From Dipteris shenzhenensis (Eukaryota), in NCBI GenBank assembly GCA_047967505.1, contig CM106538.1: 64,000 nucleotides of DNA; one strand, given 5' to 3'. Made by a program: the position numbers and the translations under genes. The stretch's first letter is position 1, and every line of letters begins with the position of its first letter. The notes below the pieces were generated by a model, which saw only the letters and a program-made list of their open reading frames with translations, searched no databases and was not told the DNA's origin. Shown in pieces: positions 9,212 through 61,205 of this stretch.

Positions 9212-10056
9212 CTATGGTCGGTTGTCTATGTTCTCCATGAGTAAAGAGAGAGAACTCAGCTGTCCTAGGTCCATCATGCCAAATTTCCTTGCCAATTGCT
9301 TCTTTATGGCTGTAATTCTTGCATTATAGTTTCTTGTGATGATCAAGTCATCAACATGTATGATTATGATCCGTACAGCATCAAAAGCTGGCGTTAGCAA
9401 GTCCGTACACCTCCATACTGCATTAAATGTTCCGTACAGGTCCGTACAAGTATGCAGATGCATTAAATGCACCCTATGGATGCCCGTATAGGCCGTACAG
9501 CTATGCGAAATTTCTTACAACAGGCGGCTACCCCACGCGTCAACCCGTACAGCAATCAATGCTGGTAAAATGCACCGATTTCTGAAAAAGGGGCTCCAAA
9601 ACGTTGATTTTCTATGCCAAATGGAAATGCTCGAAACAGCACTGAACCGCTTCAGCTCGCTGCAAATGCCTTAAGAATGAACCAACCAGCAAGAATGAGA
9701 GCTCCAGGGGCAGCCAAACAGCTTGGAAAAGCTGTCAATGGTTGAGGGAATGGATTCCTAACCTACTCTAATACCACTGTAGGCTAGGGCAAGCAATGGA
9801 AGCTCAAAAATGAGGGAGAGAAGAAAAAAAACGAGATGCTATAATGAAGTGCTGCAAAAACTGAGTGGAGGCTCAAAAGAGAGCCAACATAACAAAACCC
9901 CTAGGGCTAAGTGCCCTAACTAGACTAAGTGTCCTAACTATCCTAAGTGGTACATGTACTAATCGTACCAATTGACCTGATTGACTGTAACTAGGCCTAC
10001 AAGGCACATACCAAGGAATAAGTGGCACCTATGGATATCCCATAGAATGGCCTATA
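9212..10056 (-). mobile_element. Internally deleted Copia remnant: 5' LTR 9778..10056, PBS 9765..9776, CCGTAC-rich leader, RT fragment
   Basis: PBS TGGTATTAGAGT. The LTR shares TAGGACACTTAG and a T(G/A)TAGGCCAT terminus with the 31341 LTR. ORF 9212..9472 reads IIIHVDDLIIT...KFGMMDLGQL. Confidence 0.65.
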
Positions 10057-16375: not shown

Positions 16376-18519
16376 TGTTAGAATTATTATCATATTCTAG
16401 GCAGTGGCCAATGTATTGTAATAAGTAGGTTAGGGGCACTTTTTCTCTTTGAGATTTTTCCCCCTAGCCACAGTCCAATCCCTAACTACGGTTAGTAGAT
16501 AGAATAGGGTTTTGTCACTTAGACAAAACCCCTCACTCTTTCTTTGTACTTACTCATTCTACTCATTCTATTTAGTACACTTACGTTTACTCACTCTCAC
16601 TCTTGCTCATTGCTCACCTTGCTCCCACATTAGGTGTCAGAGCGGGTTTTCCCTGCTCTTGCTCCTGCTATACAGCTGCCTCCAAATCCCGTCCTCTAGC
16701 TCCAACTCACGACCTCCATTTTGTATAGTCCGTACGACTGAACGATTCCGTACTGTTGTCCGTACCGCCGTACGTTTCTACTGACGCCATCCATACCAGT
16801 CTGCACTGCCGTATTGCAACATTCGTACTCTGTACAGCAGGCGTCAACACCGTACTGTTATTGGTAGTCCGTGCGCCTATAGCATTCAAGCCTGCCGTCA
16901 TCCGTACAGCATCAGAACCGCATGTGCGAACTGCATCCATACTGTCGTACAGCACGTTTCGTACATTCTTGTCAGAACTGCCGTACAGTTTCAATACAGT
17001 CATCCGTACACATAATGTGTCGTACCATTTCGTCCGTACAAGCTCACTGATAGTTCCGTACTGTCAGTTCGGTACAGGTTGAAGGTGTCCGTACATTTTG
17101 CAGAGCTTTCCTTGCATGTGTTTTTGGCAAGCATTCTTGCAGATAGCCATTGTTTGGCTGGCATTTTGGGAGCAAATTTGGGGCTTTTGCATTTATTGCA
17201 AAGAATTGCACAAATTTGGGGCTTTTAGTTCATTTGCCCCTTTTAGGTACAATTTCTTGCAGAAATTTCGGGCTTTTGCATTTCGGATGCAATTTGGTAG
17301 TTGAAAGAGCATTTGGGAGATTTACAAGCAGTTTTGGACTCAATGTGAGTCATTGCATACTTTTGCCACTTTTTGTAGATTTTCTTTGTAAATTTTTTGG
17401 CATTTGTAGAGCATTGTGGTGCATTTCTCCTCTGCTGCTGTGGGAGCCATTGGAGCAGCAGCTGCTCCAATTACTTGTGCTGCATTTTGACCTCTACCCC
17501 TGCCTCCAGTTGTAGAAGTGACAGGTGTAGCCACAGAATCTGGCCTTGCTTCATCTCCATTGACATAGTCCCAAAGATGTCTGCGAACCAAGATGTTGCG
17601 AACCATAAACTCCACAAGGAGTAGTTGGCGCCATCCAATTGATCCTCCTGTGTGAGGACTCCGAACACCTTCAGAGCCATTTTTGCCAAATAAACTCAAA
17701 AAACACATCAAACTAGACGAGTAAGATCCCTTCCTGGGATGTAAAATGCACTACCAGAGTTTGCAAAAAAAAATCTGCCCACAGTGACAATTACTGCCAC
17801 AACCTATCAAAGGCTTTCACATTCAATAATGCAAGACCTCAAAGGCAGCTTGGGAGATTTTGGAGAGTATGTTTGCAACAAGACATGATGCCAGAGTTTC
17901 CTTCCTGAAGAGAGCTCTATCTCATACGCATATGGATGAGGGAGATTCAATGAATGCTCACCTTACAAAGCTTCAAGATTTGAGGGAGTAGTTGCTGAAT
18001 ATAGATGAAGTTATTCCACTACCACTCGGAATTCTCTTCCTGAGTCTTATCTTGGTTTCCACACCTCGCTGAATTTGTCATTCAGGGGAAGCAACAATCC
18101 TCTTTCTTTTCACGAGTTAGTAGGACTTCTGTTGCAGGAAGAGCAGACAAGAAGAAATATGGCAACATGGGCTCACAAGCATGCCATGCTTTCTAAGTTT
18201 AAGCCCAAAGGAAAAGGGAAGCAAAAGCAACATGCCAATCAGCCCGCACATATGCAGCCCTCTTATAAGTCTAAGGGTGATGCAGATAAGCCTGAAAGGA
18301 AGGGCATTTGTCACTACTGCAAGAAGCCAGGTCATTATATTGGTGAATGCAAGAAGCGCATAGCTAAAGAAAAGAAAAGGATTCCGGTATGACTGTGTCA
18401 GATGCATCAGCTCCTAATGCATATGATCGGGGAGATGTTACAGCCAACTTTGTGGAAGAGCACTATGCCTTTTTGTCTTGCATCTCAGATTTTTCAGTGG
18501 ATAGTTCAGATACTACAAC

Positions 18520-21500
18520 TGAAGGGGGAAGGTGAGTGGTAGATGTACAAGAGGGAGAGAGTAGGAGAGAGAGAAGACTCCAAATGTGCGGGTGTGAAGT
18601 GATGAGCCACACCACAAACTCTTAAGTTTTATTAGGATTAGGTTTTTCCCCCTATGACTGTCTTAAGACAGTCATAGGTGTCATAACTTTAATAAAGGGG
18701 TGGCAATGTGCCTTTACCCCAACAACCTCCCACCTAAAGGCCAATATGCCTAAAGGGGAGAAAAGAATAAAAATTACAGCAATATACAGTTACTGTATAC
18801 AAGACCATAAAATAAGAGTGGTCTCATCCTAATCCCATGATGTGGCGGCAATGTGCAAACCGCTCTGTAGGCAAGCTCTTAGTGAGCAAATCTGCAGGAT
18901 TATCATCAGTATGCACCTTCACAAGCTCAAGTCGCTTGTCTTCCAGTACCTCCCTGATGAAATGATATTTCACATCTATGTGCTTGGTCTTCTGATGAAA
19001 GACCGGATTCTTTGCCAACATGATAGCACTCTGACTATCACAATGCAAAACTGGCATATCTCCTGTAATGCCCAAGTCTCCCACCAGCCGAGTAAGCCAT
19101 ATTGCTTCCTTGCAAGCCTCAGTGGCTGCAACATATTCAGCTTCAGTAGTTGACAGTGCAACGCATTTCTGCAACCGAGACACCCATGATATAGCACCTC
19201 CTGCAAATGTGAAAATATAACCGGTAGTAGACTTCCGGTTATCTGCATTCCCTGCATAGTCTGAATCTGTAAAACCATGCACCAATGCATCCTGCCTACC
19301 ATAGCATATGCACAAGTCTTTGGTACCCTTGAGATACCTCAAGACACCTTTCACTGCTTCCCAGTGCCGCTTGCCTAGATTTGCCATATACCTGCTGATG
19401 ACTCCCACCGCAAAAGCAATATCCGGACGGGTGGCAACCATGGCATACATCAAAGAACCAACTGCAGATGCATACGGAACCTTGGCCATTTCAGCCTTAT
19501 CATCATCTGATCTGGGGCTGTCCTTACTGCTGAGTTTTAAATGTGGAGGCAACGGGGTACTAATAGACTTCCCCCCCTCCATTTTAAACCTCTGCAGTAA
19601 TTTGTCAATGTACTCCTTCTGTGACAGAAACAAAAGTCCCTTGGACCTGTCACGAGTAATCCTCATGCCAAGAATATGGTTGGCATCACCCAAGTCTTTC
19701 ATGTCAAAAGACTTATGCAGTTGTTTCTTTAAAGCACTAATCTCATGCTGAGATTTACTGGCAATCAGCATGTCATCCACATATAGAATGAATAGCATCA
19801 AACTGCCATCCTTTGCCCGTTTGGTGTACAAGCAATGATCGGTTTCACACCTATGATACCCTTGAGACTGCATGAAGGCATCAAACTTCTTGTACCATTC
19901 TCTTGGTGCCTGCTTGAGTCCATACAAGCTCCTTTTGAGCTTACACACAAGCTGCTCTTTCCCTTTAACAGCATATCCCTCTGGCTGACTCATGTAGATC
20001 TCATCATGGAGATCTCCGTGAAGAAAAGCAGTCTTCACACCCATCTGACATAAATCCATGTCCTCATGAGCAACAAGAGCTAATACTGCTCTCAAAGTAG
20101 TCATCTTGACGACAGGGGAAAAGATCTCATCAAAGTCAATGCCCTTCTCCTGCTTAAATCCCTTGGCAACCAATCTGGCCTTATACCTCGGTAAAGCATT
20201 TGAATCCACTTTGACTTTGAAAACCCACTTGCATGGCAAAACCTTTCTGCCTGCAGGTAGCTGCACCAAGTCCCATGTATCATTTTGAAGTAAGGAGTCC
20301 ATTTCTGACTGCATGGCTTTCTCCCACTTCCTTTTCTCTGTTCTTCCCATAGCTTCCTTGAAGCTGGAAGGCTCACCACAATCTGTCAGCATGATAAAAT
20401 CAGCCACATTGTTGGCTCCTGGAACAAACCTGTCAGGAGGCCGTTGTACACGGGTGCTCCTCCTAATAAAATGTTCCGGATTAGGCTGCTGTCCAGCCTG
20501 TTCGTCATGCATGACGGGTGGCTGTACCACCATATCTGGCTGTTGTACAGCCCCATCTGCTGGCATATCCAATGGTGCATCATTGGCAAAATTTTCTGGC
20601 TGATTTCCAGCCTGTATACCCTCTTGAACAGGGTTATCTGCAGCAGCCTGCTGCTGCATATAAAAGGGCATTCTTTGCTGTCCAACATCATCATAAATAA
20701 CCCTCCTGTATTCCACAGGTTGCACGGGTTCCTTGTGTACACTATCCTCTTTAAAGATGACATCATTGCTGCGTATAATCTTCCGTTTAACGGGATCCCA
20801 TAACCTGTACCCCATTTCACCTTCGTCACCATAACCCATAAAGATGCATCTGATAGACTTTGGCTCCAGTTTGGTGCGCAGTTCTTTGCGTACATGAGCA
20901 AAGCACTCGCAGCCAAATACACGTAAGTGCTTATATGAGGGTGGCTTGCCAGACCACACCTCCTCTGGCACTTTCAACTCCAAAGCCTTGTTTGGCGAGC
21001 TGTTAATAATGTGAACTGCTGTTTGCACGGCTTCTGCCCAAAAGCCATGGGGCAATGCAGCATAAGACAACATACATCGAGCCTTCTCCTGAATAGTTCG
21101 ATTCATTCGCTCACTTACACCATTTTGAGATGCATTATGAGGGGCTGTGAGATCCTGTTTGATGCCCTTAGCTTCGCAAAATTGCACAAAAGCATGTGAC
21201 ACATACTCACCCCCATTATCGGATCTGAGGCATTTCAGCCTGCGACCTGTCCGATTCTCAAGCTGAGCGACAAACTTCTTGAAAGCATCTAAGGCATCGC
21301 TTTTATGCTTTAAGAAATAGACCCACACTCTGCGTGTGGCATCATCAATAAAAGTAATGAAATACTTTGCACCCCCTAGTGATAACTGTGGCATCTCACA
21401 CAAATCAGTGTGCACTAGATCAAGCGGTGCTCTATTCTGGGGAGTTCTCCTCTTATGAGGAGTCACAGAATGCTTGCCAAATATGCAATGATCACAAGTA

Positions 21501-24500
21501 GGCAAGTCTGAAAAAGAAAGAGACGGCAGATAACCCAAACGTGACAGTTCTTGCATTCCTTTAACAGACATGTGTCCCAACCGGCTATGCCACAATGAAA
21601 CCTTTGGCAGCTCGGTTATGGCAACAACATGATTACCCACACTGGAAACATAAAGAGGGTACAAGGTATCACTCTTAAAACCCTCAGCCACTACAACCTG
21701 GCCATCAGTAATCACCCATTTGGAATCCCCAAATGTGGTGTGGTAACCACTGTCATCCAACAAGCCAGTGCTAATCAGATTTTTCTTGATTTGCGGCACA
21801 TGGCGAACACCATCAAGCATAAATGTGCGTCCATCAGAGAACACTATCTGTATACTGCCAATCCCTGCAATCTGACATGCATAGTTGTTCCCAAGGTGAA
21901 CAACTCCATGAGTACCTGTGTAGGAAGTAAACCACTCCCTATGAGGAGTAACATGAAAAGAAGCACCTGAATCCAAGAGCCAGGTGTGCATGTCATGGCC
22001 ATCAATAACCAATGTGTGTGCAATTACAGCAGAAGAACATAATACCTCATGTCTGTCACTGTCACTGTCCTCTGCTGCAACATTCACTGCATCCAAGTCA
22101 TCTACCTTGGCCTTGCCTTTGCCTTTGCTTCCACTCCCTGCATCCTTTGTTTCAGCCTTCTGGGCTTTCTGATCCCGTATAAACTTGAAGCACTTAGACT
22201 TCACATGTCCCTTCTTGCCACAATAAAAGCATTCAATATCCTTTATACCACGGGACTGACTGCGGGATTTAGACTTACTAGCAGATCTCCCCTTCTGCTG
22301 AGTCCTGCATCTTTCCTGTACCTGCAAAGCATTTGAAGACTTGCTGCCAGCATTATTCTTTCTGCTCATCTCCTCCATAAGGAGAGAGCTCTCCACATCA
22401 GCATACATAAGAGTGACATTTGAATTAGACAGGGTGGTCTTGAAAGTGTCCCAACTCTCAGGAAGGGTACACAACAAGAAAGTAGCCTTGAACTCCTCAT
22501 CAAGGTTCAACCCCTGTGCAATCAGCTGTGTAAAGATGGCATTGAACTCACTCAAGTGTGAGGTCATAGCTGTACCTTCCTTCATGCGAAGATCAACCAG
22601 CTTCTTCAACCAATACACCTTACTGGCTGAACTCTTTTGTGCATACAACTCTGCTAGCCTCTGCCATACACCATAAGAGGTCTTTTCAGCCTGAACATTG
22701 TACACAAGAGAATCACTGAGAGTAAGCATGATAGCAGCCCTCGCGGACAGATCTAGCTCCTCCCATTCATCATCTGACATCCCAGATGGCTTGACACCCT
22801 TCACCCTCATGGGCTTAGAAATCTTCTTAAGCAGAAGTACATTCAAACACTGTTCTGCCCATAATGCATAATTGTGTGCCCCTTCCAACTTCTTTATGTT
22901 CAGAATTGATGATTCATTTCCCCCTGATGCCATATCAGATAAGGAAAGTACCTGACTCCCTGTAAGTCAAGAAAGACTGAATAAAATTCTGATTTCTCAG
23001 AAAAAACCTGCTCTATCAAGAGCCAGGAGCACTCACAATAGTGCTGTTTTTTACTGTCAGAAAATCTGCAGCACAACAGAAAATTTCTCTCCAGTTACTG
23101 TACCTTCTGACACACTGTACCGTGCTCAAATAGGCATTAAAAAAAAACAGTAATTTCAGAATGCTGCAGCTGCTCCACAAGTGCTTTAACAGTGCATCAA
23201 CAGCTGACAAAGCACAAAACACTGCTGTAAACACTGCTGCACTGCTGTCCTGATCACTTCTCCCACCTCGGATGAGGTATTGCACTGATTTAATATGCAT
23301 AAACCACTTGGCATATACTGTTTTGATTACCGGAAAAAAAAAAAAAAAAAAAAAAGAGCTCTAGACACTTCAGCCTGTCACAAAGCCTGCAACAGAAAAT
23401 GGGATAAATCCCAAGCAATTACCCTTCTGCCAAGGGAATAAAATGCATCTGAAGATCTCTGACAGTAACCCAAGTGCTCTCAAGCAAAATCTGGGCAAAA
23501 GCCCCTTGATCTGACACTTGTACCAAGTGAAAACAACCTCAACAATGAGGGATAAGGCATACAATGTGCAAATCTCTCTGACAAAATCAACTAACAGTGT
23601 AATGCAAATACTACCCTGTGTAGAAATGACATACACAGATCCCAACGTACAAACACTCAATGAGGAACCTTTTGAGCACTGTCAACGATGGACAGTTAGG
23701 GACCGAGTAAACTCGATGCGCCCTGGCCAAGCGTGGCTCAACTGAGGTTCTCTGAGTGTTGCACAAGAAATGTGACCTGCAAGAAAATGTCACCTCCACA
23801 CTGCGGAAATCGAGACAAATGTGTGCACTCTGGCACCACACTACCTCAAGGCATACAAAGCATCAACTGCTGGGCAAAAGCCCTATGATCTGCTCACCCG
23901 TAAACTGAGATTCAAACCCAGTAAAAGCATATATCCTCTGCAAGATCAAGGCATTACCTTCCCAAAACAAAATAACTGTGCAATCAACCACACACTGTGG
24001 TTCTGGTCACCTCAAGCAAGAGGGAGATGAAGGTACTTGCTGTACTTTCAAAAAAAAACAGTTTTGAGAACTGAAAAATGATCCTGAATGAAGAGCAGAG
24101 TGCTCTTTTTCCTTCTCTTTCTTCCCCAGAAAAAAAAACTGATGTACCTGCTGTACTTTCGTACTTGTGTACCTGTGCAGGGTACAAATGTACCTGCTGT
24201 ACCTATGCAGGGTACAAATCCAAGGAGAAATTTCAAAATGTACTCCTCTGACGCAGATCCAAAACAAAAAAGCACCTTCCTGTCGAAAATCCCTGACACA
24301 GCTCCCTGTCATAGTCCGTACGGTGGCGTCCGTACGGTACGGTCGCCTGTACGGTGTCCGTACGGCTGTACGGACGGCCGTACGTCCGTACGATACTGTA
24401 CGGCGTGCGAAATGACGCGTGCGCCTGCTGCCCGCTCTGCTGCCCGCCTACGAAATGGCGCGCTGCTGCGCCCCCCGCACTGCCTGCTGCAGCCCGCTCT

Positions 24501-24842
24501 GCTGCTGCGCTGCTGGTGCGGCGCTGCCGCCCTGCTGCTGCCCGCTCTGCCTCGTTGCAGCCCTGCTGGCCACTAGGGCAAAGGGGTAGGGAGTGGGTAG
24601 ATGGAGTGGAGAGGGAGGGGTAGGCTCTGATACCAATTGAAGGGGGAAGGTGAGTGGTAGAAGTACAAGAGGGAGAGAGTAGGAGAGAGAGAAGACTCCA
24701 AATGTGCGGGTGTGAAGTGAAGAGCCACACCACAAACTCTTAAGTTTTATTAGGATTAGGTTTTTCCCCCTATGACTGTCTTAAGACAGTCATAGGTGTC
24801 ATAACTGTAATAAAGGGGTGGCAATGTGCCTTTACCCCAACA
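18520..24842 (-). mobile_element. Young full-length Ty1/Copia (Tnt1/Tork-like) LTR retrotransposon nested in the older Copia
   Basis: 205-bp LTRs 18520..18724 and 24638..24842 (3 mismatches by eye); TSD ACAAC at 18515-18519 and 24843-24847; PBS TGGTATCAGAGC 24635-24624; PPT AGGTGGGAGGT. Confidence 0.97.
18824..22933 (-). CDS. Copia Gag-Pol polyprotein (1369 aa): gag, Zn knuckle, protease, integrase, RT, RNase H
   Basis: Unbroken ORF with CFYCGKKGHVKSKC, WLLDSGAS, HTDLC...RSDNGGE...NGVSERMN, YVDDML and TDSDYAG. Confidence 0.95.
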   Translation of the reverse strand: MASGGNESSILNIKKLEGAHNYALWAEQCLNVLLLKKISKPMRVKGVKPSGMSDDEWEELDLSARAAIMLTLSDSLVYNVQAEKTSYGVWQRLAELYAQKSSASKVYWLKKLVDLRMKEGTAMTSHLSEFNAIFTQLIAQGLNLDEEFKATFLLCTLPESWDTFKTTLSNSNVTLMYADVESSLLMEEMSRKNNAGSKSSNALQVQERCRTQQKGRSASKSKSRSQSRGIKDIECFYCGKKGHVKSKCFKFIRDQKAQKAETKDAGSGSKGKGKAKVDDLDAVNVAAEDSDSDRHEVLCSSAVIAHTLVIDGHDMHTWLLDSGASFHVTPHREWFTSYTGTHGVVHLGNNYACQIAGIGSIQIVFSDGRTFMLDGVRHVPQIKKNLISTGLLDDSGYHTTFGDSKWVITDGQVVVAEGFKSDTLYPLYVSSVGNHVVAITELPKVSLWHSRLGHMSVKGMQELSRLGYLPSLSFSDLPTCDHCIFGKHSVTPHKRRTPQNRAPLDLVHTDLCEMPQLSLGGAKYFITFIDDATRRVWVYFLKHKSDALDAFKKFVAQLENRTGRRLKCLRSDNGGEYVSHAFVQFCEAKGIKQDLTAPHNASQNGVSERMNRTIQEKARCMLSYAALPHGFWAEAVQTAVHIINSSPNKALELKVPEEVWSGKPPSYKHLRVFGCECFAHVRKELRTKLEPKSIRCIFMGYGDEGEMGYRLWDPVKRKIIRSNDVIFKEDSVHKEPVQPVEYRRVIYDDVGQQRMPFYMQQQAAADNPVQEGIQAGNQPENFANDAPLDMPADGAVQQPDMVVQPPVMHDEQAGQQPNPEHFIRRSTRVQRPPDRFVPGANNVADFIMLTDCGEPSSFKEAMGRTEKRKWEKAMQSEMDSLLQNDTWDLVQLPAGRKVLPCKWVFKVKVDSNALPRYKARLVAKGFKQEKGIDFDEIFSPVVKMTTLRAVLALVAHEDMDLCQMGVKTAFLHGDLHDEIYMSQPEGYAVKGKEQLVCKLKRSLYGLKQAPREWYKKFDAFMQSQGYHRCETDHCLYTKRAKDGSLMLFILYVDDMLIASKSQHEISALKKQLHKSFDMKDLGDANHILGMRITRDRSKGLLFLSQKEYIDKLLQRFKMEGGKSISTPLPPHLKLSSKDSPRSDDDKAEMAKVPYASAVGSLMYAMVATRPDIAFAVGVISRYMANLGKRHWEAVKGVLRYLKGTKDLCICYGRQDALVHGFTDSDYAGNADNRKSTTGYIFTFAGGAISWVSRLQKCVALSTTEAEYVAATEACKEAIWLTRLVGDLGITGDMPVLHCDSQSAIMLAKNPVFHQKTKHIDVKYHFIREVLEDKRLELVKVHTDDNPADLLTKSLPTERFAHCRHIMGLG

Positions 24843-27587
24843 ACAACTACTATTGAGGATGATCCATATGCTTTCTTGACTTGCAGTTATGATCCTTCAA
24901 AGGATACATGCTTTCTCAGTGTCAATGAGACACTGAATACTTGGTATTTTGATAGTGGTGCTTCTAAGCACAGCACTTCTTAGAAGAGCCTTTTTGCATC
25001 TCTACATCCTCCACCTACTAAAAAGAAGGTGACTTGTGCAAATAATTCTTCTTATTCAGTGTGTGGAGTGGGGGATATCATCCTCGCATCCACTAAAGGC
25101 ATAGAATTTCAGAATTTCAGTTGTTCTTTATGTGCCAGGTATAAAGAAGAATTTGCTTTCAGTGTCCTCTCTCAATAGAGAAGGATTTCAGGTTATATTC
25201 GATGATGCTAAGTGTGCACTCCGAGACAAAGAGAATGACTATGCTTTGATGTTGTCTGGCACTTTGTATCGGGGTCTTTTTCAGCTTGACATTTATGAGA
25301 AAAGATCCGATCTTGCATTTTCAATGAGCACTCCCACTGCTGCAATGCAGAATGCGGAGTTATGGCATGCCAGGTATGGGCACATGAGCTATGGCAACTT
25401 AATGACACTTCAAAAGCATGCTATGGTTAATGCATTGCCTCCTTTGGAGTCACCTCCTCCTCATGCATGTGAGGGTTGCATCCTTGGCAAAATGCAAAGA
25501 CTTCCTTTTAAGAAGGATGGTGCAATAAGAGCTACTCGAAAATTACAGCTCATACACAGTGATGTCCGCGGACCCATGAGGACACCTGCTTTTGGTGGTT
25601 ATCTCTATTATGTTACATTCATAGATGACTTCACCAATTATACTTGGGTCTATGGTCTTAGGGCAAAATCAGAAGTGTTTATGCATTTCAAACACTTTGT
25701 GGCTATGGTTGAGAATGAGACAGGACTCAAGATGCATACACTTCGCACAGATAAAGAGGGGGAGTATATGTCTCATGAGTTTTAGGAATTTTTGGAGGAG
25801 AAAGGCATCACGCATCAGCTTACAGTGAGGCTTACACCTCGGTAAAATGGCAAAGCTGAGCGCAAGAATCGCACTCTTATGGACATCGATAGATACATGC
25901 TCACTAGTAAGAAGTTTCCTCACAGGTTTTGGCTCAAAGGTCTCATGTGTCAAATTATGTTTTGAATTGGACTCCCACAAAAGCTTTGAAGATAATCACT
26001 CCCTATGAGGCATGGCATGGGAGAAAGCCTTCACAGGATAACTTCAGAGTTTTTGGTTGAGTTGCATATGCCTACGTGCCTGTGGAGTTTCGACATAAGT
26101 TTTCAGATAAGGCACTTAAATGCATTTTTATTAGGTATAGTGCACAAATCAAAGGCTATCGTCCCTGCACTCCTGCTTCTCGCAAGATTTTTATGAGTAG
26201 AGATGTTATATTTTCAGAGAATTCAGCACATACACATGCTGAATATACTATTCCAGCTTCTTCAAACGATGTTTCTGAGGCGATGCTTCCTATAGCATTT
26301 GGTTCCCCAGCTGAGGCTCATGCTGAAAATCAGAATTTACAGCAACCTCCTCCTGATCCACATGCCCCGATTCAGCCATAGGCTGATTTTGTACCTCCAC
26401 AGGGTGTGGATGTAGTTGTCATGCAAAAGATTCAAGAGATACACACAGCCAAAACAGTTCCGAATTGGTTGCTACAAACTCTTAGGGAGAGTAGGCTTGA
26501 GGCACCTTTGCCTGGCAGGACTCGTAGTGCAGTAAGGCACGCAGGGGGGGCCCTTTCTGTTGAGACAGCTTATGCAAGTACTCTTCTTGATAAAGAAGAA
26601 CCTGACTCTTTTGAAGAAGCAAAGGATAATGTGCATTGGATGCATGCCATGCACAATGAATTGCAATCCATTGAGAAAAATCAGACTTGGGATGTTGTGG
26701 ATGTGCCACCAGGTAAGCATGCCATTGACACCAAGTGGGTTTTCAAAGTGAAAAGCGAGCCAAATGGAGCCATTGACCGGTACAAGGCAAGGCTGGTTGC
26801 TAAAGGCTATGCATAGAAGAAGGGCATAGATTATGAGGAGACTTTTACTCCTACATCCCGAATGACCACCATAAGGTCAGTTATTGCCATGACTGCAAAT
26901 TTTGTTTAGTGGTAATTGTTTCTTTTTGGGCAAAGCTTGCATTTCTTGGCTGAGCAAGAAGCAATCTACAATGGCTACTTCCTCATGTGAAGCTGAGTAC
27001 AAGGCAGCTTTCACAGCGACAGTAGAATGTGTTTGGCTGCGTCGTTTGTTCACTGATCTTCGTCTCTTATTGGAGGGTCCTTCTCCAATTCTCACTGATA
27101 GTTAGAGTGCTATAGCAGTGGCAAAGAATCTTGTGTTTCATGCTCGCACAAAGCACATTCAAGTTCATTATCATTATGTCAAAGAGAAGTTGCATGCAGG
27201 GGAGATCAGTATGATCTATGTGTCAACACATGACAATGTTGCAGACATCTTCACCAAAGCACTTCCACGTGAGAAGTTTGAGGGATTTCGTGGTGCCCTA
27301 AACTTATCTCCTTTTAGTGATTGATCACTACCTTGTACATCACGTTGGCACTGCAGGGGGGTGTTAGAATTATTGGTATATTCTAGGCAGTGGCCAATGT
27401 AATGTAATAGGTAGGTTAGGGGCACTTTGCCTAGTTAGATCCCTAACTACGGTTAGTGGATAGGATAAGGTTTTATCACTTAGACAAAACCTCTCACTCT
27501 TGTACTTTCTCACACTCATCTATTGAGACGTTTGCACCTTCTTGCTCCCTTGCGTCCTACTTGCCCATTTCCTTCAGGGGGATGGCT

Positions 27588-30561: not shown

Positions 30562-31340
30562 CTAGAAAATGCAAAACAACTTAGACGACAAAAAATATGT
30601 ACTACAAAATCAAACAACATTAAGCACACTAAGCACAAAGACTATAAATAACCACAAGAAAAGTGAACAAGAACCCTCGCGAAAAGTAACAAACTCGCAC
30701 AAACTTTGACGGCATAAAAGGTCAATTATCATTTGTTCAGTACTATTGGCAAGGCTTATACACAAGCATCCAATAGATGGCTTACCCCCAAACCAAAAAT
30801 TAAAAAACAAAAAAGCATGCTAGGGCATTAACAAAATCATTGTAGCATTTATCACAACTAAGTTATTAGCATACATAAGTTTTGATCAAACTTCATAGTT
30901 CCTAAAGGGTTGAAATTATGTAGCTCCTTGGATACTTTTTCATATGATGGATTCACAACATTCATATGATGGATTCAAGCATACATTTGAAACTCCTCAT
31001 GGATTCTCTTTCATTTTGAAAGACCTTCATCTCTAATGTCCTTCCTAGAATTTTATGCTTACAATGTTTTGTTCATGCTACTTTTACACATGCCCTGCCA
31101 ACTTCAAATGCACCTTTAACGAAGCTTCCCAAAGAAGCTAAATAAAAAGGGAGAAAAGACAACCAAGAATAGACCCTAGAAAAACAGCACCAAAACAAAT
31201 TTTATCGACAAGAAGAGGGTGTGTAAGATCTCCTATAGAGTGGCCTTCGACCCGAATTCTCCACCAAACCAACACATTCATAGTCCACCAAACCAACACA
31301 TTCATAATCCTTCACATGACTCGCCTTCTCCTATCATTTG

Positions 31341-34300
31341 TGTAGGCCATCTCCTGGTGGTTCTAGTGATGCCCTATAGGCCATGGTATGTTCCTTCTAG
31401 GCATAAATATAGGCACTTGTAGTGTTAGTGCCTTTTAGGCCACATAGGACACTTAATCCTATGTGACACCTAGGACACTTAGTCCTAGGTCTAGGTACAA
31501 GTACTTTGTACTCTCTATTTTCATTATCCTAGTTGACGTGACGGCTAAGACAAGAACGACTCTTTGCTACCTGCACTCTCTCTTTCATTCGATCCTACAG
31601 TGGTATCAGAGCCTCTCTTGAACATGCCTAGGAAAAGGTTTCCTTGCCTGTTTCCCAAATTGACAGGCTTCACAAACCTTGTGCATTTCTGCAACCTTGA
31701 ATTTAGGCACTCCTGCAACAATATTTTGGGCTTGCATTGATTTAAGTCGCTGTATATTAACATGACCAATGCTTTTGTGCCAGATATCAATATCTGAACT
31801 ACACCGGTCCCATGTGCAAACATTGCTGCACTCAATTCAGGCATGTCCGCATCCAACGTAAACATCGTGCCCTTCTTCTTTCCTTTTGCTATCAAGCGAC
31901 CATTATTTTTCATATCCTCAACAAAGCATCCATGAGGATTAAATCTGACCTGCAAGCCCTGCTCAACCATCTGACCAACAGAAACCAGGTTCTTGGTGCC
32001 GTACATTTTCGTACCTGCGTCGATGTACATCAATACTGCTCTCCGTACTTGCACTACGTACTTGTCCGTACAGGGTATCGTACTGTGCTTCGCCATAGAA
32101 CAGACGTACTGTGACTCAGTACTTGACACGCCGCACCTGCATGCGGGAACGTACCTGCTCCATACAGTTTTCGTACAGCGTACCAGCATTGTACCTGTTC
32201 AGTACACCATACTTGCCTCCTAACTGCATCCGTACAGCCGTACGTTGGATACAGTCACCTGCTCCGTACAACTACCATACAGTCACCTGCTCCGTATAAC
32301 TACCGTACAACCGTACATTCTGCTCAGTACACTATACCGTACAGTCACGTACTTGATCTGCCAGTACAGATCGTATTATTCCCGGGATTTCAGTACAGGT
32401 TTGACACGTGTGAAATTATTTGCAGAGTATTCTCAAAATTTGGGTCTTTTGAGGGCTTTTGCTCTCCTTATCTTCCTTCTCCTGTTTGAAATCTTCTCAA
32501 GCTATTTCAACAGCTTGGAAAGCCTACATTTTGAGGTCCATACTTTGGGACAGGTGTACTTTTGCACTCAATTTGTGGACAGCAAGTCCTAATTTTGCAG
32601 TTGCAAGCCTTGAGGCTTTTTTTTTTTTGGATTTGGTCTTGCAATTTCTCTTTTGATTGCAATACATTGGGACAGATTGGAGTACATTGAATCACATTTG
32701 CAGGACATTGAGTCACATTCGCATACATTGGGTCACATTTGCAAAAATTTCAGCAAAATTTGGGGCTTTTCTGCATTTGCCCTCTTTTTGGCCTATTTGC
32801 CCTCATTAAATTTGGGGCTTTTGCCATATTTGCTGTTTTTGCAATAACATTTCCTGCCACAGTCACATTTGGGTCAGATCTGCATTTGCCCTTTGTTTTG
32901 GGTTGGAAATTTGTAGATATTTGCTGTCATTTTTGAACAGCCAGCTTTTTGCAGTGATAGCCTTGAGGCTTTTGGGTTTTCAGCTCTTTTTCAAGGTATC
33001 ACATTTGCTATGGCTGGGAACAATCAAGATCTATTTGGCATTCTTCGTGAAGATGATAAGTTGGATAGCACCAATTATCTGATGTGGTCTTATCTCATGA
33101 AACATATTCTTGTTGCAAAGCATTTGTGGAATGTTGTTTCTGGGGTTGACCTGAGGCCAGCCAATGCTACAGTGGTTGCCTCTACTGTTGGTCCCTCTGC
33201 AGGGGGTACTCATCCTGATGCCTCATCTTCTAGCACTCCTGCTACTACTCTTCCAACTCAGGAACAGTCAAGATGGCATGCAAGAGATGCAAATGCACAT
33301 TCATGCATTGCTTTATCATGCAAGAGAATCATTATTCCACACATCCGGTCTTGCAGGACAGCAAAGGATGCTTGGGATAAAATTGGCTTCTCTCTATCAG
33401 ATTCGCAATGAAGCACGTGTTGCATATTTGAGAAGGCAATTACAGGAAGTCAGTATGAATGAAGGTGACTCTATGGATGCATACCTGACAAAGGTCAAGG
33501 ACCTCATGAAACAACTTGCCAACATTGATGAGGTGGTGCCAAATTCACAGCTTGTCAGTACCACACTGAATGGACTGCCAGATACATATCAAGGGTTTGC
33601 TACAACCCTTCGATTAGTGGCCATGGGTAATCCAGACCACTATTCTTTTGATCAGCTAGTTACTTTGCTTTTGCAGGAAGAGCAAAGTCGAGCTAATAGA
33701 CAAGCCATTATTCCTGATCATGCATTTGCTTCACAACAGATAGGAAGAGGCAAGGCTTCCAAGCCTATGGGCAAGCCAAAATCTGCACATAGCAGCTGCA
33801 ATTCCTCCCATGCATCTAAAAATACAACAGATAAGTCAAAGAAGAAAAGATGCAACTATTGTCACAAGCCTGGACATGACATTTCAGAATGCAGGAAGCG
33901 CATTGCTTCAGAGAAAAAGAAAGCAGGATTGACAATTAGTGCCTCACATGCTATTGAATCCCATGAGCCAGCAGATGCTTCACATGCACATGCTCTTCAG
34001 GATGATTGGGCATGGGCTGTCCATTGCTCCTTTGATCCCTCCAAAGCTGATGCATTCTTTACTGCTAATGATGCTCAGTCCTGGTACTTTGATAGTCGTG
34101 CTTCCAAGCATGTCACATCTTGCAGACAATTGTTTCACTCTTTAGCTGATGCACCTCGAGGGGGAACTGTCACATGTGCTAATAATGCTTCATATGCTGT
34201 AAATCTATTTCAAGTCATCCTGTCACTTTGACAAATGTTCTCTTTGTGCCTGGAATTGAAGTCAACCTGATCTCAATTTCAGCAATTACTACTTCAAGTT

Positions 34301-37300
34301 TCAGAGTGATTTTTGATGGCTACAAATGCCTAGTTTATGATCTTCATGATGACAATGCCATAGTTCTCACTGGCACTTTGCAAAAGGGGCTTTATCACCT
34401 TGATCATCACTCAACTGCACTTTCTATTGAAGCATTTGCCATTTCAGATTCACAGCTTGCTGAAACTCATCTTTGGCATGAGAGAATGGGCCATCTCAAT
34501 TATAGAGCTCTTGCAAAGCTACATTCACAACACATGGCAAATGATGTACCTCAAACTCACACAGTTTCCAAACATGTGTGTGAGGGTTGTCTTTTGGGTA
34601 AGATGCATCGGTTTCCTTTTCAAAAAAAAGGTCCAAAACTCTCACAAAGGAAATTACAGCTAGTGCACAGTGATGTCTATGGCCCAATGAGGACAAATGC
34701 CATTGGGGGGTACAAATATTTCATAACTCTCATTGATGACTTCACAAGATATTGCTGGATATATCCTTTAAAAGCCAAATCTGAAGTTTTCTTATATGCT
34801 TTCAGAGGTGGCTGAATATGGTTGAGAATGAATCAAATGCAAGCTTGTCACCCTCAACATAGATAGGGGGGAAGAGTATATGTCAAAGGAGTTTCATGCA
34901 TTTCTGTCTTCACGGGGCATTATTCACTCATGCACTACTCCTTACACTCCTTAGTGAATCCTGTTTCTGAAAGGAAAAACAGGTCCACAATGGAGATGGC
35001 CAGATGCATGCTTAAGGCCAAGTCTTTGCCCAATAAATTTTGGCTTGATGCAATGACGTGTGCCAACTATGTGCTGAATAGATCACCTACACGGGCATTG
35101 AAGATTGTTACACCTTATGAAGCATAGCAAGGTAGGAAGCCTTCACTTTCACACATGAGAGTTTTTGGGTCTCTTGCATATGTTCATGTACCATCTCAGC
35201 TGAGACATAAGCTTGATGACAAGGCAATCAAATGCATATTTATTGGTTACAACCAGGAGAGTAGAGGGTATCAGTTATACCAACCAAATACTGGGAAGAT
35301 TATTGTCAGTAGAGATGTAATCTTTGCTGAACATTCAGCTTCTCCTCTTGTGGACTGCAAAGCTAAGCCAGATGTTGACATGTTTGATGCCTTTGAATCT
35401 TGGTTACCTCTACCATCCTCAAAAGAGGACTTTGACCAGCAACATGAGCCTCCTGCAGGCCCTCCACCAAGCAATAATCAGCCACTACCCCATGCTGATT
35501 TGCAGGTTTCTCTTCCGGTACAAAATGATCCCACTATTCATGATGCTGTCATTGAAGAAAGAGCTGTAAATAGACAGCAAAGGCAGGTTCCCAAATGGCT
35601 TCTTGATACATTGAGGGACAGCAAACAAGATCAGCCTTTTGCTGCCCCGACAAGATCAGGGAATAGACAGATGCATGGTCACTTTCTTGAGTTTGCACTC
35701 CTTGCTACAGCATGCAATGAAGAGCCCTTGTGCCATAAAGATGCTTTTGACAGCAAAGAGTGGATGGATGCAATGAGAGCTGAGTTACAATCCATTGCCA
35801 AAAATGACACATGGGAATTGGTGGTACCCGGTGGGTCTACAAATTAAAAAGGAAATCTGATGGCAGTATAGATCGACACAAAACCCGTCTTGTTGCAAAA
35901 GGGTATGCCCAACAACAAGGCATTGACTTTGAAGAGACATTTGCTCCTACATCCAGGATTACTACCATTAGATGTGTCATTGCCATTGCAGCCCATCATC
36001 ATTGGCAAGTGCACCAACTTGACATCAAGACTGCTTTTCTTCATAGGGATTTGCAGGAAGAAGTATATGTCACACAACCTCCTGGCTTTGAGGTTGTTAA
36101 TTCTGAAAATAAGGTATGCCAGCTTAGAAAAGCCCTTTATGGTTTAAAGCAAGCCCCCAGGGCATGGTATGCCAAAATTCATGCACACTTACTATCCCTT
36201 GGTTTTCAGAATAGTCCCACAGAACCCACTCTTTATGTCCGTGGGAGTGGATCTGATTTTTTAGTGCTGATTTTATATGTGGACGATATGCTCATCACGG
36301 GCCCAAATACTCAGCAAATTGCAGCTTTCAAGGCTAATTTGCAGCAGATTTTTGACATGTCAGACATGGGACAGCTCCATTATTATTTGGGCATTCAGTT
36401 TGCTCATGTTGAGGGGGGTATCATGATGTCTCAGTCCAAGTATATTGAACAGCTCCTTGATCGTTTTCAGTTTGAGGATTGCAAGCCAATCTCTACTCCA
36501 GTGGACCCTGGCTTCAAATTCTCAGCTCATGATGGGAGCCCACCATGTGATATCACTCTTTATCGGCAAGCTGTTGGATGCCTTATTTATCTATGTCACA
36601 CCAAACCTGACTTACAGTATGCAGTATCTCAGCTCAGCAGATTCATGCACATGCCCAGTTCACAACATTGGCAGGCAGTGAAGAGAGTCTTCAGATATCT
36701 AAAGGGGAACTCAGGATTTAGCCCTCTTCTATGGTGATCAGGGTTCACTTACCATGCATGCTTACACGGATAGTGACTGGGCAGGATGTTCCGACACCAG
36801 AGTGTCACATACTAGTAATTGTTTTTTGCTTGGCAATTCATGTATCTCTTGGCTCAGCAAGAAGCAACCAACAGTTGCCACATCTAGCTGTGAGGCTGAG
36901 TACAAGGCAGCTTTCACCGCTACAGAAGAGTGTGTTTGGCTTCGACAGTTACTTACAGATCTTGGTATTTGCCAGACATCCTCCACTATTGTCTACACTG
37001 ACAGCCAGAGTGCTTTGGCCATTGCGCATAACCCAGTGTTTCATGCGCGTACCAAGCATATTGAAGTTCACTATCATTATGTTCGGGAGCGGTTGTCAGC
37101 AGGAGACATAGAGTTGTCCTATCTTCCCACAGAGGACAACATAGCATATATGTTTGCAAAGGCACTTCCTCGTCCCAAGTTCGAAGTCTTCCGACAGGCT
37201 TTACACTTGGTTCCCTTTGTTACATGATCTGACATCCCTTGTACATTCATAGGTGGCTATATCCTTTCGGATGAACATGTGCCACCATGACCAGAAAATA

Positions 37301-37614
37301 CCAAGTATCCTGAGACGTTTCCAGAGTACTTCAGCCCATCCCATGGAGGGGGGTTTGTAGGCCATCTCCTAGTGGTTCTAGTGATGCCCTATAGGCCATG
37401 GTATGTGCCTTGTAGGCATAAATATAGGCACTTGTAGTGTTAGTGCCTTTTAGGCCACGTAGGACACTTAGTCCTATGTGACACCTAGGACACTTAGTCC
37501 TAGGTCTAGGTACAAGTACTTTGTACTCTCTATTTTCATTATCCTAGTTGACGTGACGGCTAAGACTAGTGCGACTCTTTGCTACCTGCACTCTTTCTTT
37601 CATTCGATCCTACA
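31341..37614 (+). mobile_element. Full-length decayed Ty1/Copia LTR retrotransposon in intron 2
   Basis: 259-bp LTRs 31341..31599 and 37356..37614 (about 9 mismatches); TSD ATTTG; PBS TGGTATCAGAGC 31601-31612; PPT GGAGGGGGG. Confidence 0.95.
33010..37227 (+). pseudogene. Frameshifted Copia gag-pol
   Basis: Fragmented ORFs 33010-34231 (CNYCHKPGHDISEC, WYFDS), 34228-35847 (integrase), 35811-36737 (QLDIKTAF, YVDDML) and 36754-37227 (RNase H). Confidence 0.9.
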
Positions 37615-37804
37615 ATTTGAAGGAAGGCACTAGAGCCATAACCCTCTCACATCCACCAAGCCCAATCTCGATTCTAGACATGGTAACAACATATGGAAGG
37701 TTTTTTAGTTTTAACATGAAGCTGCCACGGCTCAGAGTCACACTTTTCTATAGGCAAAAGTATCACTTATGTAATGAAATGGTCTTTTTTTTCAAATAGA
37801 AAAT

Positions 37805-38947
37805 TGTTAGAAATCGACCAACAAAGGGTATGTACAGCGGAAGACTCATAGAATAGCCCAAGAGTTCACACAGTGCGGTGTGTGGAATCACAAACTTCTT
37901 AACTTAATGTGCATCATATAGATGTGCAGACTCATCATAGACAATGAACCAGCTAGATATAGAAGCCACCAAAATAATATATATCCGTCCAAAGCTATGG
38001 ACACAATACAAAAGAGATAGATCCAGAGTCCCACCAATGGTATGGTAGTCTGATCTTACCACAAGGTATGTCTCTTATCTGCCAGCTATCTCTAGACTCG
38101 AGCCCGCGTGCTCCACCTTGAGCTTCTACAGACTTCCTGTCCATATCAAAACACCTTGCTGCCCTACACGACAGCCAAGGTTCAGCCCTGGATAAACTCT
38201 ATCTGCAGCAACTCCTAGTCTCCTCTGCCTCCTAGATGTAGGCCTGAGGGTGTGAGTATAGCTGCTCCTGCTGCTCCTCTGATGGCTGACTTGTTGAATG
38301 AATTATGCCCCCCCAAAGGGCTCCTTTTATAGGGGCAGATGGCTCCTCAAAGTCCACTGACCAGCAGGGTGCTGGCCGACTTAACTGCCCCTCCAACCAA
38401 CCCCACCAGCCCTTGTTTATAGGGCTGTGGGCACACCTCTTAGGGCTGTGTGCTGGCCGACCTAGTTGGCCAGCCGACCAGCCAGCTTAGCCCTATATAA
38501 GGGCATGCCACTGCCCACTAGCAGCCCTTCTTTGCTGCGCCACCTGGCCTCCATGCAAGCGCCTCCAAGATCTGCTGGTTCCGCGTTCAACTAGGCCATG
38601 TCCACGGATCCAAGGATCTGCACCAGTCCCGTACAGGCACGTGTACTCACCCGTACTAGAGAAGCTGGTGTTCCGTACTGTTCCTTCAGGGATCCTCCAC
38701 CTCAGTGCTTTGATCTTTGTACTGCCCACATGACAGCCTGTTTGCTGTCCATGTGGCAGCCCCTTTTCTTCTCTCTTGGCTGTGAGGTGCTGTCCATGTG
38801 GCAGCCCCCTCCCTTGCTGTATTGTTGTTTGATCCTCATGGCAACCACCATGTTTCCCATGTGACCATCTCTCAGATCCTAGGTCCACCTCCCCCCCATG
38901 CTATCCTCATGTGGGGGATTACAGATGGGGAGGTGACCTTTCCAACA
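37805..38947 (-). mobile_element. Solo LTR (1143 bp)
   Basis: Termini TGTTAGAAA...TTTCCAACA; TSD AAAAT on both sides (37800-37804, 38948-38952); TATA-like CTATAAAAGG on the minus strand near 38330; no coding domains. Confidence 0.85.
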
Positions 38948-45700: not shown

Positions 45701-46917
45701 AGTTTCTATTGCCGACGAAGCTCCAAGAGCATGGGATGACAACCGGTATGTCAGACAGAGGAACTTATTAGATATACTGATAAATTCTAAGAAATTGTAA
45801 TGAAAATCATTGATCCATTACCACAATTCGTCCAAGTCAAATATTATATAGCAATAGCAATTGCATTAAACTATGAGGATCAAACCAAGTGGTTTTGCAC
45901 GCCCTAGAGCTCAGAACGAGTTCCTAACGAATCTAACTCTCCAAAGGAAATTTGTGAGAAAAGGGATAGTGCCTGGAGCCAATAATCAAGCCAAGAAGGC
46001 TAGAGTAATTGGCAGTATTTCACAACCAAGTACCACAATAGGATGAAAATAAAAACATCCCCATGGAAGCCCGGGCTTGAAAGCAAGAAGCTTTCACCTT
46101 CTCAAAAAATTTAGCTAACTCATGAACAAGAGTTGTATGCCGTGACCTATGCTTTGAAAGCATGGAGACATTATTTGTATGGTGCAGATCTTTATGTCAA
46201 TGTCAACCATGACACTCTAAAATATTTTTGTACACCTTGATTTGAGTGACCACCAAGCGAGGTGGGCAAAACTCACGTGGGAATTTCATATGGAAATTTG
46301 GTACTGAAGAGGGAAGGATAATAAATTACTGATGCGTTATAGCGCATTATGCATCCTACGAGTTTCTCAGTATTAGAAAGTGTTCTAGTGAATGAAGTAA
46401 AAGAGGACAAGTATGTCTACATGCTCATTATGATTAAACTTGGGGTTATAGATGACCTGGCACCTAGGGAAGGCCATACATGTGCAAGGTATATCATAGA
46501 TGATGTTATGCTGAAAAGAAATGGCACGGTAATCAGAATGATCTCCGCCAAAAGATCATTCATCAATGCCATGATAGACCATGTGCGGAACATCTACATG
46601 TTGAAAAGATACTTCAGCTCGTAAAGCGTGATTTCTTTTGGCAAAAAATGAAAAAGCATATTCATGAATATGTCACACAATCTTTTTCGTGCTAGGTTAG
46701 TAAGGCAGAATAGGGGAAGGCACGTGGCCTTTTACAACCATTGGAAATGCCATCAGGTAGATGGGAGAGCATTTCCATGGATTTTATAGTTGATCTGCCA
46801 CAGACACAAGGAGAATATGATTCTATCATGTGATGGCTAACTTTATTCCGACCAGAGAGTCCATAACCGAGTCAATAACTGCCCCACAAGTGCAGATTTG
46901 TATCTAAATAAAGTGTT

Positions 46918-47499
46918 TTGTTCCAGATCGATGACATCTCCCCAGCCTACCGGATACAGGGTCAGAGCATTCGGAGGATAGAGCTTCATGAGGCAGTCCC
47001 TCCTGATAGCCTAGCTCCCCTTTCTCCTCCACAGCACAACGTTTGGGAGGTAGTAGCCAGTATCACTGCGTGGAACATTTGGGTGGCTTGTTGCAGTCTC
47101 GTGATGGGTAAGCATCAGGTTCCAACCTACCATGGTCGCCATCTGGCAGGATATCATCTATACTCTACGCTCCACCTTACGCTCCACCTGGAAACGTGGG
47201 ACTCTAGGCTCTAGAGCGACTATTGAGCGGCGTGCTCGTTTCTGCAAGGCTTGGCCTGCAGGAGTCTTCTGCATCTTCACTCCACGAGGGATTCGCTAGT
47301 TGTATAGTCCCCCAACTTCGTTGTTAGCCCTAGTACCAGAGATTCCCTAGGCAGTGAACTTGGTTTCTCTAGAACAGGCCGGTTTTTCTTTCAGCCTTTT
47401 ATGGGTTTTTTTCATACTCAGCACCTTCGGGGCTGCTGTTTTGTATGAAATCTTTCAAGCATTAATAGAAGGTTCCTTTCTTTGCAATAAAATAAAATA
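46918..47499 (+). mobile_element. 5'-truncated L1-like LINE inserted in the Gypsy integrase
   Basis: 12-bp TSD AAATAAAGTGTT (46906-46917, 47500-47511); (AATAA)n tail; L1-type C-terminal W...AWNIW motif. Confidence 0.8.
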
Positions 47500-51414: not shown

Positions 51415-51755
51415 TCAAAGTTGACATCATGACGGCTTGGCATAAGTTGGATGCAGAGAATTGCCGTAATTTAGAGAAATATAACAAGAAATTTTGGGAA
51501 GCCCTGTTGCTAGTTAGTTCCTATCGTCATGTTCCATTGTCTGAGCAAGTAGAGAAATATTGTTGTGGATTGCCAAAGGAAATTTGAGACTTCTATACTA
51601 AGTCCAAGGTTTCTCATATGTCGAAGTCGATCGAGAATGCCAATACAGCTTATGCTTTGCTACAGGGCGGGACCACTGATTTTAAGGGCAGCAATAGAGA
51701 AGAATTCAAAAGGAAAAAAGAGTTCAAAAGAAAGGAGGACTTCAAAAAGAAAGAT

Positions 51756-61145: not shown

Positions 61146-61205
61146 CACACATAGCTGGCGGCGACACAACTGCAATCCAAGGCAGGACGATTCTCAACTG
61201 GAGAA

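Follow-up and report, generated by a model that had tools for sequence, protein, structure and literature searches.

Among described systems, the one closest in anatomy to the arrays reported here is the leader array of the Drosophila retrotransposon gypsy, and the closest plant case is the repeated motifs (RMs) of Sireviruses. The arrays lie in a stretch of 64,000 nucleotides of Dipteris shenzhenensis DNA (GenBank assembly GCA_047967505.1, contig CM106538.1; the whole stretch is referred to as the window), which is a nest of long terminal repeat (LTR) retrotransposons. They are made of sites with a GTAC core and occupy the leaders of Ty1/copia (Copia) elements, between the primer-binding site (PBS) and gag. 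In gypsy, the 5' untranslated region (UTR) carries 12 Su(Hw) sites that form a leader insulator (PMC2493044). Both in gypsy and here, copies of a short, degenerate motif are packed densely, at varying distances, into the 5' UTR between PBS and gag; a host zinc-finger protein binds the gypsy array (PMC2493044). It differs in kingdom, motif and superfamily (Ty3/gypsy as against Ty1/copia), and up to 24 sites are found in the arrays described here. Binding and insulator activity have been demonstrated for gypsy and are hypothetical for the present arrays.

The Sirevirus RMs comprise 8–32 copies of a short, CpG-containing word with dyad symmetry in the non-coding parts of plant Copia elements; they are conserved among elements of very low overall similarity, and the role proposed for them is cis-regulatory (PMC2829016, Bousios et al. 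2010). RM clusters coincide with CpG islands, and the arrays here likewise have observed/expected (o/e) CpG ratios of 1.04–1.36, as against 0.28–0.35 for whole elements. RMs are located in the LTR upstream of the TATA box and also upstream of env, while the present arrays are downstream of the PBS; no env-like open reading frame (ORF) was seen in Pfam and ORF scans of the window. The RM signature CGG...CCG is palindromic, whereas the word here is tCCGTACag, with CCGTACGG palindromes only in one block (B1) of one array. Unlike the Sirevirus RMs, the word here equals a documented transcription-factor consensus.

Two further systems are comparable. SBP-box or copper-response clusters in host promoters (miR397/398-type) also contain the GTAC core and CCGTAC(A/G) in multiple copies, as in the banana miR397 promoter with 11 GTAC motifs (PMC6848093). 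Such clusters lie upstream of genes and are far sparser, while here 17–24 sites are packed into less than 410 bp of a transposon's transcribed leader. Far fewer repeats than in the present arrays are also found in the untranslated leader region (ULR) enhancer of Drosophila copia. That enhancer is similar in occupying a Ty1/copia leader region downstream of the 5' LTR and in binding host proteins, and it differs in motif and host. The present arrays are distinguished by their place (the PBS–gag leader), by their word and by the match of this word to a documented transcription-factor consensus. No report of GTAC or SBP-box arrays in LTR-retrotransposon leaders was found in the literature covered, which consisted mostly of titles and abstract openings and excluded subscription journals; one paper names an SBP-box, only in a Pogo DNA-transposon set (PMC8725346).

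GTAC arrays in four Copia leaders

The window contains 222 GTAC sites, where shuffled sequence would give 123. The surplus is concentrated in four stretches, 32001–32396 (24 sites), 24033–24401 (20 sites), 16732–17094 (17 sites) and 9373–9550 (6 sites), which correspond to the following arrays, each named after the element that carries it.

31999..32396, plus strand: array A, 24 GTAC sites; motif on the element's sense strand
24033..24401, minus strand: array B, 20 GTAC sites in two blocks, B1 and B2
16730..17094, plus strand: array C, 17 GTAC sites (15 CGTAC, 11 CCGTAC) on the sense strand; starts about 90 nt past the PBS-like site
9371..9550, plus strand: array D, 6 sites, all tCCGTACA; antisense to element D

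Outside these four arrays, 155 GTAC sites occur in 62,671 bp, or 1.0 per 404 bp, and at this background rate the 24 sites of array A have a Poisson probability of about 6e-25. We further compared each stretch with 2000 dinucleotide-preserving shuffles of itself, a severe test, since the preserved dinucleotides themselves contain the bias. Array A has 24 GTAC sites against a shuffle mean of 7.4 and maximum of 15, array B (24030–24405) has 20 against 2.3 and 9, and array C (16730–17095) has 17 against 4.9 and 12. In array D (9370–9552), the 6 sites compare with a mean of 1.5 and a maximum of 6, so that GTAC alone does not exceed every shuffle; all six are CCGTACA, and CCGTAC occurs 6 times against a shuffle mean of 0.13 and maximum of 3. 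The longer word is also enriched in the other arrays, with 9 CCGTAC in A, 5 in B (plus 7 GTACGG) and 11 in C, the shuffle means being 0.59, 0.15 and 0.42, respectively. An initial annotation of this DNA had put about 24 GTAC sites in about 400 bp of array A, where chance would give 1–2, and had described most of them as CGTAC. Both statements agree with our counts: 24 sites were found against 1.0 from the background and a mean of 7.4 from the shuffles, and the make-up of the array is 17/24 CGTAC, 9/24 CCGTAC and 8/24 CCGTAC[AG].

The arrays lie 90–385 nt inward from the PBS sites at 31601, 24635 (minus strand), 16632 and 9776 (minus strand), that is, in the PBS–gag leader, and an array is present in 4/4 recognisable Copia 5' leaders of the window. 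The carriers are Ty1/copia elements by their LTR pairs (97% and 98% identical), their PBS and the domain order gag-protease (PR)-integrase (INT)-reverse transcriptase (RT)-RNase H (RH). The placement of array A between PBS and gag, as annotated before, is correct for its position, but the first 385 nt after the PBS are an antisense pol fragment of another Copia element. Similarly, the same enrichment had been reported at the same position in three more Copia elements; leader arrays are indeed present in B, C and D, but that of D carries the motif on the other strand and follows the T-rich part of the leader. The four arrays stand, and a fifth, small cluster at 38629–38722 (3 CCGTAC and 2 GTAC), not listed before, can be added.

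The shared word, its spacers and its CpGs

The unit shared by the arrays is an asymmetric 8–9-mer, tCCGTAC(A/G)g, in which only the GTAC core is palindromic. The consensus was drawn from a pool of 56 sites (24 from A, 9 from B1, 17 from C and 6 from D), anchored on GTAC and read on the CCGTAC strand. Block B1 (24398–24318) contributes nine sites of the CCGTAC(A/G) type, among them several CCGTACGG palindromes, while the 11 sites of block B2 (24240–24033) were excluded because they share the core only, as (A/G)GTACA. Among the pooled sites, T is found at position -3 in 28/56, C at -2 in 40/56 and C at -1 in 47/56; position +1 is A in 31/56 or G in 8/56 (A/G in 39/56), and +2 is G in 30/56. In contrast, only 19/155 background GTAC sites have C at -1. 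The information content is about 0 at positions -8 to -4 and +3 to +8 around the core.

The extended word is nearly confined to the arrays. CCGTAC(A/G) has 33 matches on both strands of the window, of which 32 are inside the arrays (about 1.3 kb, 2.1% of the window), leaving one in the remaining 62.7 kb. By array, the full 7-mer is found at 8/24 sites in A, 6/20 in B in the sense orientation (plus 5 on the other strand), 7/17 in C and 6/6 in D. Of the hexamers CCGTAC and GTACGG, the window holds 44, with 38 in the four arrays and 3 in the cluster at 38629–38673. CCGTAC(A/G) is given as the cis-element of SBP-domain proteins, with reference to Liang 2008 and Franco-Zorrilla 2014 (PMC6508781), and GTAC is named as the SBP core (PMC13234004). 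The initial annotation had recognised GTAC as this core, and the array consensus carries the match on to the published CCGTAC(A/G) (PMC6508781). The arrays have what marks an SBP-box cluster at the sequence level, namely multiple GTAC cores together with the extended CCGTAC(A/G) consensus.

The long arrays extend over about 370–400 bp, at about one site per 16 bp. The distance between sites varies from 5 to 102 nt, and no single period fits any array. Tandem Repeats Finder (TRF, minimum score 30) detected sub-repeats in array A (28 nt x2.2 at 32249–32309; 8 nt x2) and in array B (30 nt x2, 20 nt x2.4 and 8 nt x4.2), and no tandem repeats within arrays C and D. Spacer 8-mers that are repeated number 10, 4, 2 and 4 in arrays A–D, against at most 0.21 expected, while most spacer sequence is unique. 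The arrays are fed by local duplication, and they are clusters of motif plus spacer, not a minisatellite: no period is constant over an array, and similarity does not extend into the spacers. The earlier statement that the spacers form no simple tandem repeat is thus right as to the period, and it needs qualification for the 28-nt and 8-nt TRF repeats of array A. The possibility raised there that the arrays are a degenerate minisatellite is not borne out, with no constant period and information limited to the motif.

CpG dinucleotides behave differently in the word and around it. The CpG o/e ratio is 1.18 in array A, 1.04 in B, 1.36 in C and 1.09 in D, as compared with 0.39 for the window, 0.28 for the whole of element A, 0.35 for the whole of element B and 0.09 for the post-array leader of A; neighbouring leader and LTR sequences range over 0.09–0.33. 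The array excess is wholly within CGTAC/GTACG, which accounts for 18/27 CpGs in A, 15/21 in B, 17/30 in C and 6/12 in D, while non-motif CpGs within the arrays are depleted like their surroundings (o/e 0.30–0.59). This pattern fits purifying selection on the word in a transposing lineage, or protection of the word from methylation, and it is not predicted for a freely drifting repeat. Since motif CpGs are kept and non-motif CpGs lost, selection is indicated, and we regard it as very probable that the word is under selection. CCATAC variants had been explained earlier as CpG decay; such variants exist (3 in A, 2 in C and 1 in D, with one CTGTAC), but deamination-type changes are few, and deamination does not yield CAGTAC, which with 5 sites is the most frequent variant in array A.

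The word is shared by elements that are otherwise well diverged. Between A and B, identity is 44% in RT, 32% in PR/INT and 26% in gag; it is 49–54% between A and C and 34–49% between B and C, so that overall pol protein identity among the carriers is 26–54%. The LTRs of A and B are unrelated, which upholds the earlier description of the 18.5–24.8 kb element (B) as different in both polyprotein and LTR. Searches of arrays and leaders against each other (blastn, word size 7) gave no end-to-end array homology, so the arrays are not one inherited alignable sequence, the second possibility that the initial annotation had named against itself. The best array match is A against C, with 63% over 142 nt; arrays B and D gave only a 54-nt, palindrome-driven match, and the T-rich part that follows the array is the one place where the leaders of A and C are solidly similar (76% over 88 nt). 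The carriers are Copia elements of plant type. The closest relatives of the polyproteins are 52–69% identical. For the element A RT the best named match is from a fern (Adiantum, 63%), with seed-plant proteins at up to 55% among the matches listed, and for the element B polyprotein the best named relatives are plant proteins at up to 45% identity (Ipomoea). The presence of the array across these lineages may reflect convergence, deep inheritance of a motif-constrained module or old recombination.

A coding function of the arrays was also considered and rejected: ORFs overlap them in several frames and match no Pfam family. The open frames are a by-product, because the word, on direct reading, has no stop codon in any frame.

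Candidate roles of the arrays

On the sense strand, CGTAC outnumbers GTACG by 17:1 in array A and 15:2 in array C. Block B1 carries both orientations through its CCGTACGG palindromes, and in element D the motif is on the antisense strand relative to transcription. A strand bias within an array is expected anyway from local duplication. RNA folding compared with shuffles gave z values of +0.64 for A, -0.24 for C and -6.5 for B, the strong folding of B being due to its palindromes. As no excess fold is shared among the three long arrays, a structure-based RNA signal was dropped as the principal explanation. A double-stranded DNA site fits best, because both orientations are tolerated and no fold is needed, and the sequences suggest that the word probably acts as DNA.

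We tentatively favour the view that the arrays are homotypic clusters of sites for a host factor, most probably an SBP-domain protein (SPL/CRR1-type), selected in the leaders of diverged Copia elements. Green plants encode SBP-domain factors, and SBP domains are zinc-binding. The host factor would load at many sites over about 370–400 bp just downstream of the 5' LTR promoter; the array would then work as a downstream enhancer or docking platform, and transcription of the element would follow the activity of the factor. Sites would be gained through small local duplications and lost through point mutation, a process partly visible in the arrays themselves. Lineages that keep enough CCGTAC(A/G) words would continue to transpose, so that the word and its CpG would persist while the spacers randomise.

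A more specific form of this proposal is possible and more doubtful: in a land plant without seeds, several Copia lineages that separated long ago would keep, under selection, a CpG-retaining SBP-box array of up to 24 sites as a methylation-sensitive downstream enhancer, tying their transcription to SPL activity (reproductive phase change; spore- or gamete-forming cells) or to copper status via SPL7/CRR1-type factors. If so, the arrays would be a plant counterpart of the tissue-targeting leader modules in Drosophila gypsy-type elements, and tens of sites per copy, multiplied by many copies, could make a genome-wide sink for SBP factors. SBP/SPL docking in general would give retrotransposons a route to choose the time and place of their expression (phase change and reproduction, or copper stress), and it would be one of the rare cases where sequence directly shows how a transposon family is regulated. 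Transposable element (TE) copies could then hold a large share of the genome's high-affinity sites for one transcription-factor family. Motif-level conservation can outlast alignable similarity in the non-coding DNA of TEs, which bears on how their regulatory modules are searched for.

Several points weigh against SBP docking. The full 7-mer is present at only part of the sites (8/24 in A, 6/20 in B, 7/17 in C), and the 11 sites of B2 are core only. The repeated spacer 8-mers imply that part of the site count is due to slippage and not to independent retention. The sites lie downstream of the transcription start, where plant enhancers occur but are not usual. That the host has SBP genes is presumed from what is generally known of green plants. 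SBP is not the sole candidate factor either, since a preference for CCGTAC has been attributed to one bHLH protein in modelling (PMC13234004). The sense-strand bias of A and C is predicted by an RNA-level signal as well, and the only clearly reversed array, D, belongs to a dead, deleted copy. No array is present in a further LTR element of the window, not assigned to a superfamily, that shares the PBS type (PBS at 43971). Furthermore, one or two outgroup Copia leaders in contaminant contigs are without an array; they come from 12 contaminant or related loci from a prokaryotic genome collection, none of which has a GTAC cluster (maximum 6 per 400 bp), and this comparison says little because only L008, and perhaps L002, extends upstream of gag.

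Everything that speaks for a selected motif in double-stranded DNA would apply equally to a docking array for a non-SBP factor or to a role in chromatin, as an insulator or boundary, an anti-silencing platform or a repressor target. The anatomy resembles that of the gypsy insulator, a repeat cluster in the 5' UTR (PMC2493044), and the bHLH model with its CCGTAC preference (PMC13234004) offers a non-SBP candidate. The CpG retained in every site would make binding methylation-sensitive. Nothing in the window discriminates between these roles. We know of no plant equivalent of Su(Hw), and the sole consensus that we could document for the exact 7-mer is that of SBP (PMC6508781); we consider this alternative unlikely, if credible.

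An RNA-level signal is less likely again. Here, CCGUACAG words would bind Gag/nucleocapsid for packaging or a host RNA-binding protein, or the GUAC palindromes would aid RNA dimerisation. Packaging and dimerisation signals of retroelements usually lie between PBS and gag, and the array is within the transcribed leader at this place; the sense bias of A and C, the sense copies in B and the folding of array B (z -6.5) agree with such a signal. Against this, a linear RNA signal would not tolerate the reversal in element D, where the motif is antisense to the transcript, arrays A and C have no excess structure, and a palindrome of 4 nt would be too short for stable kissing or dimer contacts. Rfam gave no match, and no RNA-binding protein that recognises such a word is known to us. 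The RNA reading retains this small probability because the reversed array, D, is in a dead copy that has suffered a deletion.

Tandem repeats are common in the untranslated regions of LTR retrotransposons, and the local duplications in A and B (TRF) and the excess of repeated spacer 8-mers would suit a neutral, decaying micro- or minisatellite, renewed by slippage and tolerated in leaders, with a coincidental resemblance to the SBP-box; this is improbable, the least likely of the explanations considered, given spacings of 5–102 nt without a fitting period, no TRF repeats in C and D, information confined to 8 positions between random flanks, the same word in four lineages with 26–54% pol identity and unalignable leaders, motif CpGs kept beside lost neighbours, and a 7-mer found once in 62.7 kb outside the arrays. 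Were the arrays non-functional, they would amount to a modest note on the turnover of leader repeats.

Carrying elements and other features of the window

The features of the carrying elements are as follows.

31341..31599, plus strand: 5' LTR of element A with TG...CA ends; a direct repeat of 259 nt, 97% identical to 37356–37614
37356..37614, plus strand: 3' LTR of element A, paired with 31341–31599
31336–31340 and 37615–37619: target-site duplication (TSD) of element A, ATTTG, 5 bp, read from the flanks
31601..31612, plus strand: PBS of element A, TGGTATCAGAGC, exact match
31613..31997, minus strand: antisense pol fragment of a different Copia element, within element A; protease end and N-terminal integrase zinc finger
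32400..33009, plus strand: post-array T-rich leader of element A, with a AAATTTGGGGCTTTTGC-like word three times and a 20-nt tandem repeat; the gag ATG follows at 33010
33010..37227, plus strand: gag-PR-INT-RT-RH of element A, split into several frames and frameshifted
18516..24844, minus strand: element B, a complete Copia element with LTRs at 18516–18726 and 24634–24844 (98% identical), nested inside element C
24624..24635, minus strand: PBS of element B, TGGTATCAGAGC, exact match
16380..16630, plus strand: 5' LTR of element C; partner at about 27366–27520
16632–16643, plus strand: PBS-like site of element C, AGGTGTCAGAGC, degenerate
24845–27100, plus strand: remainder of element C (PR/INT/RT), resuming after the insertion of element B
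9765–9776, minus strand: PBS of element D, with an LTR at about 9900–10054 distantly like that of element A (61% over 163 nt)
38629..38722, plus strand: cluster E, 3 CCGTAC and 2 further GTAC in 94 nt

The PBS TGGTATCAGAGC is of the initiator tRNA-Met type, and each of the four arrays is downstream of a PBS of this kind. Element A has a whole leader of about 1.4 kb, and on its successive ORFs the Pfam domains follow the order Retrotran_gag_2, Pol_BBD, gag_pre-integrs, rve, SH3_retrovirus and RVT_2; the gag domains begin at about 33061, in frame with the ATG at 33010. The antisense fragment of 385 nt fills the gap from the PBS to array A. It contains gag_pre-integrs on the minus strand (Pfam, E 2.4e-13), is 25–35% identical to the PR/INT of A, B and C, and has no second DNA copy elsewhere in the window. 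The start of array A coincides exactly with the junction to this fragment, and the first CCGTAC adjoins it. With its intact LTR ends and TSD, element A may have transposed as a chimera, with the antisense pol piece in its leader. The transcript of element A would be complementary to the mRNA of the lineage that donated the fragment.

Element D is a deleted, dead copy, in which the order is PBS, T-rich leader part (leader of about 210 nt) and then the array; array D adjoins a minus-strand RT fragment at 9250–9373, which marks an internal deletion. Because a pol fragment abuts the first CCGTAC on the same side in both A and D, the array edge may be prone to rearrangement. In element B, which has an intact gag-pol ORF of 1380 aa at 18827–22966, the array is situated about 220–600 nt inside the PBS. 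Between the two, at 24420–24600 (minus strand), there is a GC-rich run of CAG/CGG-like triplets (gcagcagcagggcggcagc...) with several TRF periods.

The T-rich leader after array C resembles that of element A. The AAATTTGGGGCTTTTGC-like word is found in 3 copies each in the post-array leaders of A (32436–32824) and C (17174–17279); allowing up to 2 mismatches, AAATTTGGGGCTTTTGC has 6 matches against 0.4 expected, and none elsewhere in the window. Downstream of the array in the element A leader, at 32657–32743, TRF also reports a 20-nt repeat, TTGCAGTACATTGAGTCACAT, with 4.2 copies and 77% matches.

Cluster E is part of a GC-rich stretch and follows a TATA-like ccctatataaggg at a distance of about 135 nt; it may be a further instance of the array outside a recognised Copia leader. 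Its assignment to an LTR paired with 42.3–42.7 kb was rejected for poor alignment. Three GTAC cores within 17–19 nt are also present in the 3' part of the LTRs of A and D (31495–31511, 37510–37526 and 9950–9968), and the LTRs of B (24663) and C (16546) contain a similar TTGTACT word 30–90 nt before the PBS. GTAC words may thus matter inside the LTR as well.

For the rest of the window, Pfam scans of all ORFs of at least 70 aa recognised no host gene, and the Rfam and tRNA scans gave no matches. A 390-aa open frame at 60024–61193 (minus strand) belongs to no Pfam family and has a single distant database relative, with 44% identity over 57% of the query. The LTR element without an array occupies 43600–57960, with LTRs at 43605–43912 and 57589–57901 that are about 80% identical, and no Pfam-recognisable ORFs were found in its first 3 kb. 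Nested in it is an element with LTRs of about 1.2 kb (47895–49155 and 55543–56826, about 90% identical) and a Ty3/gypsy-type RNase H.

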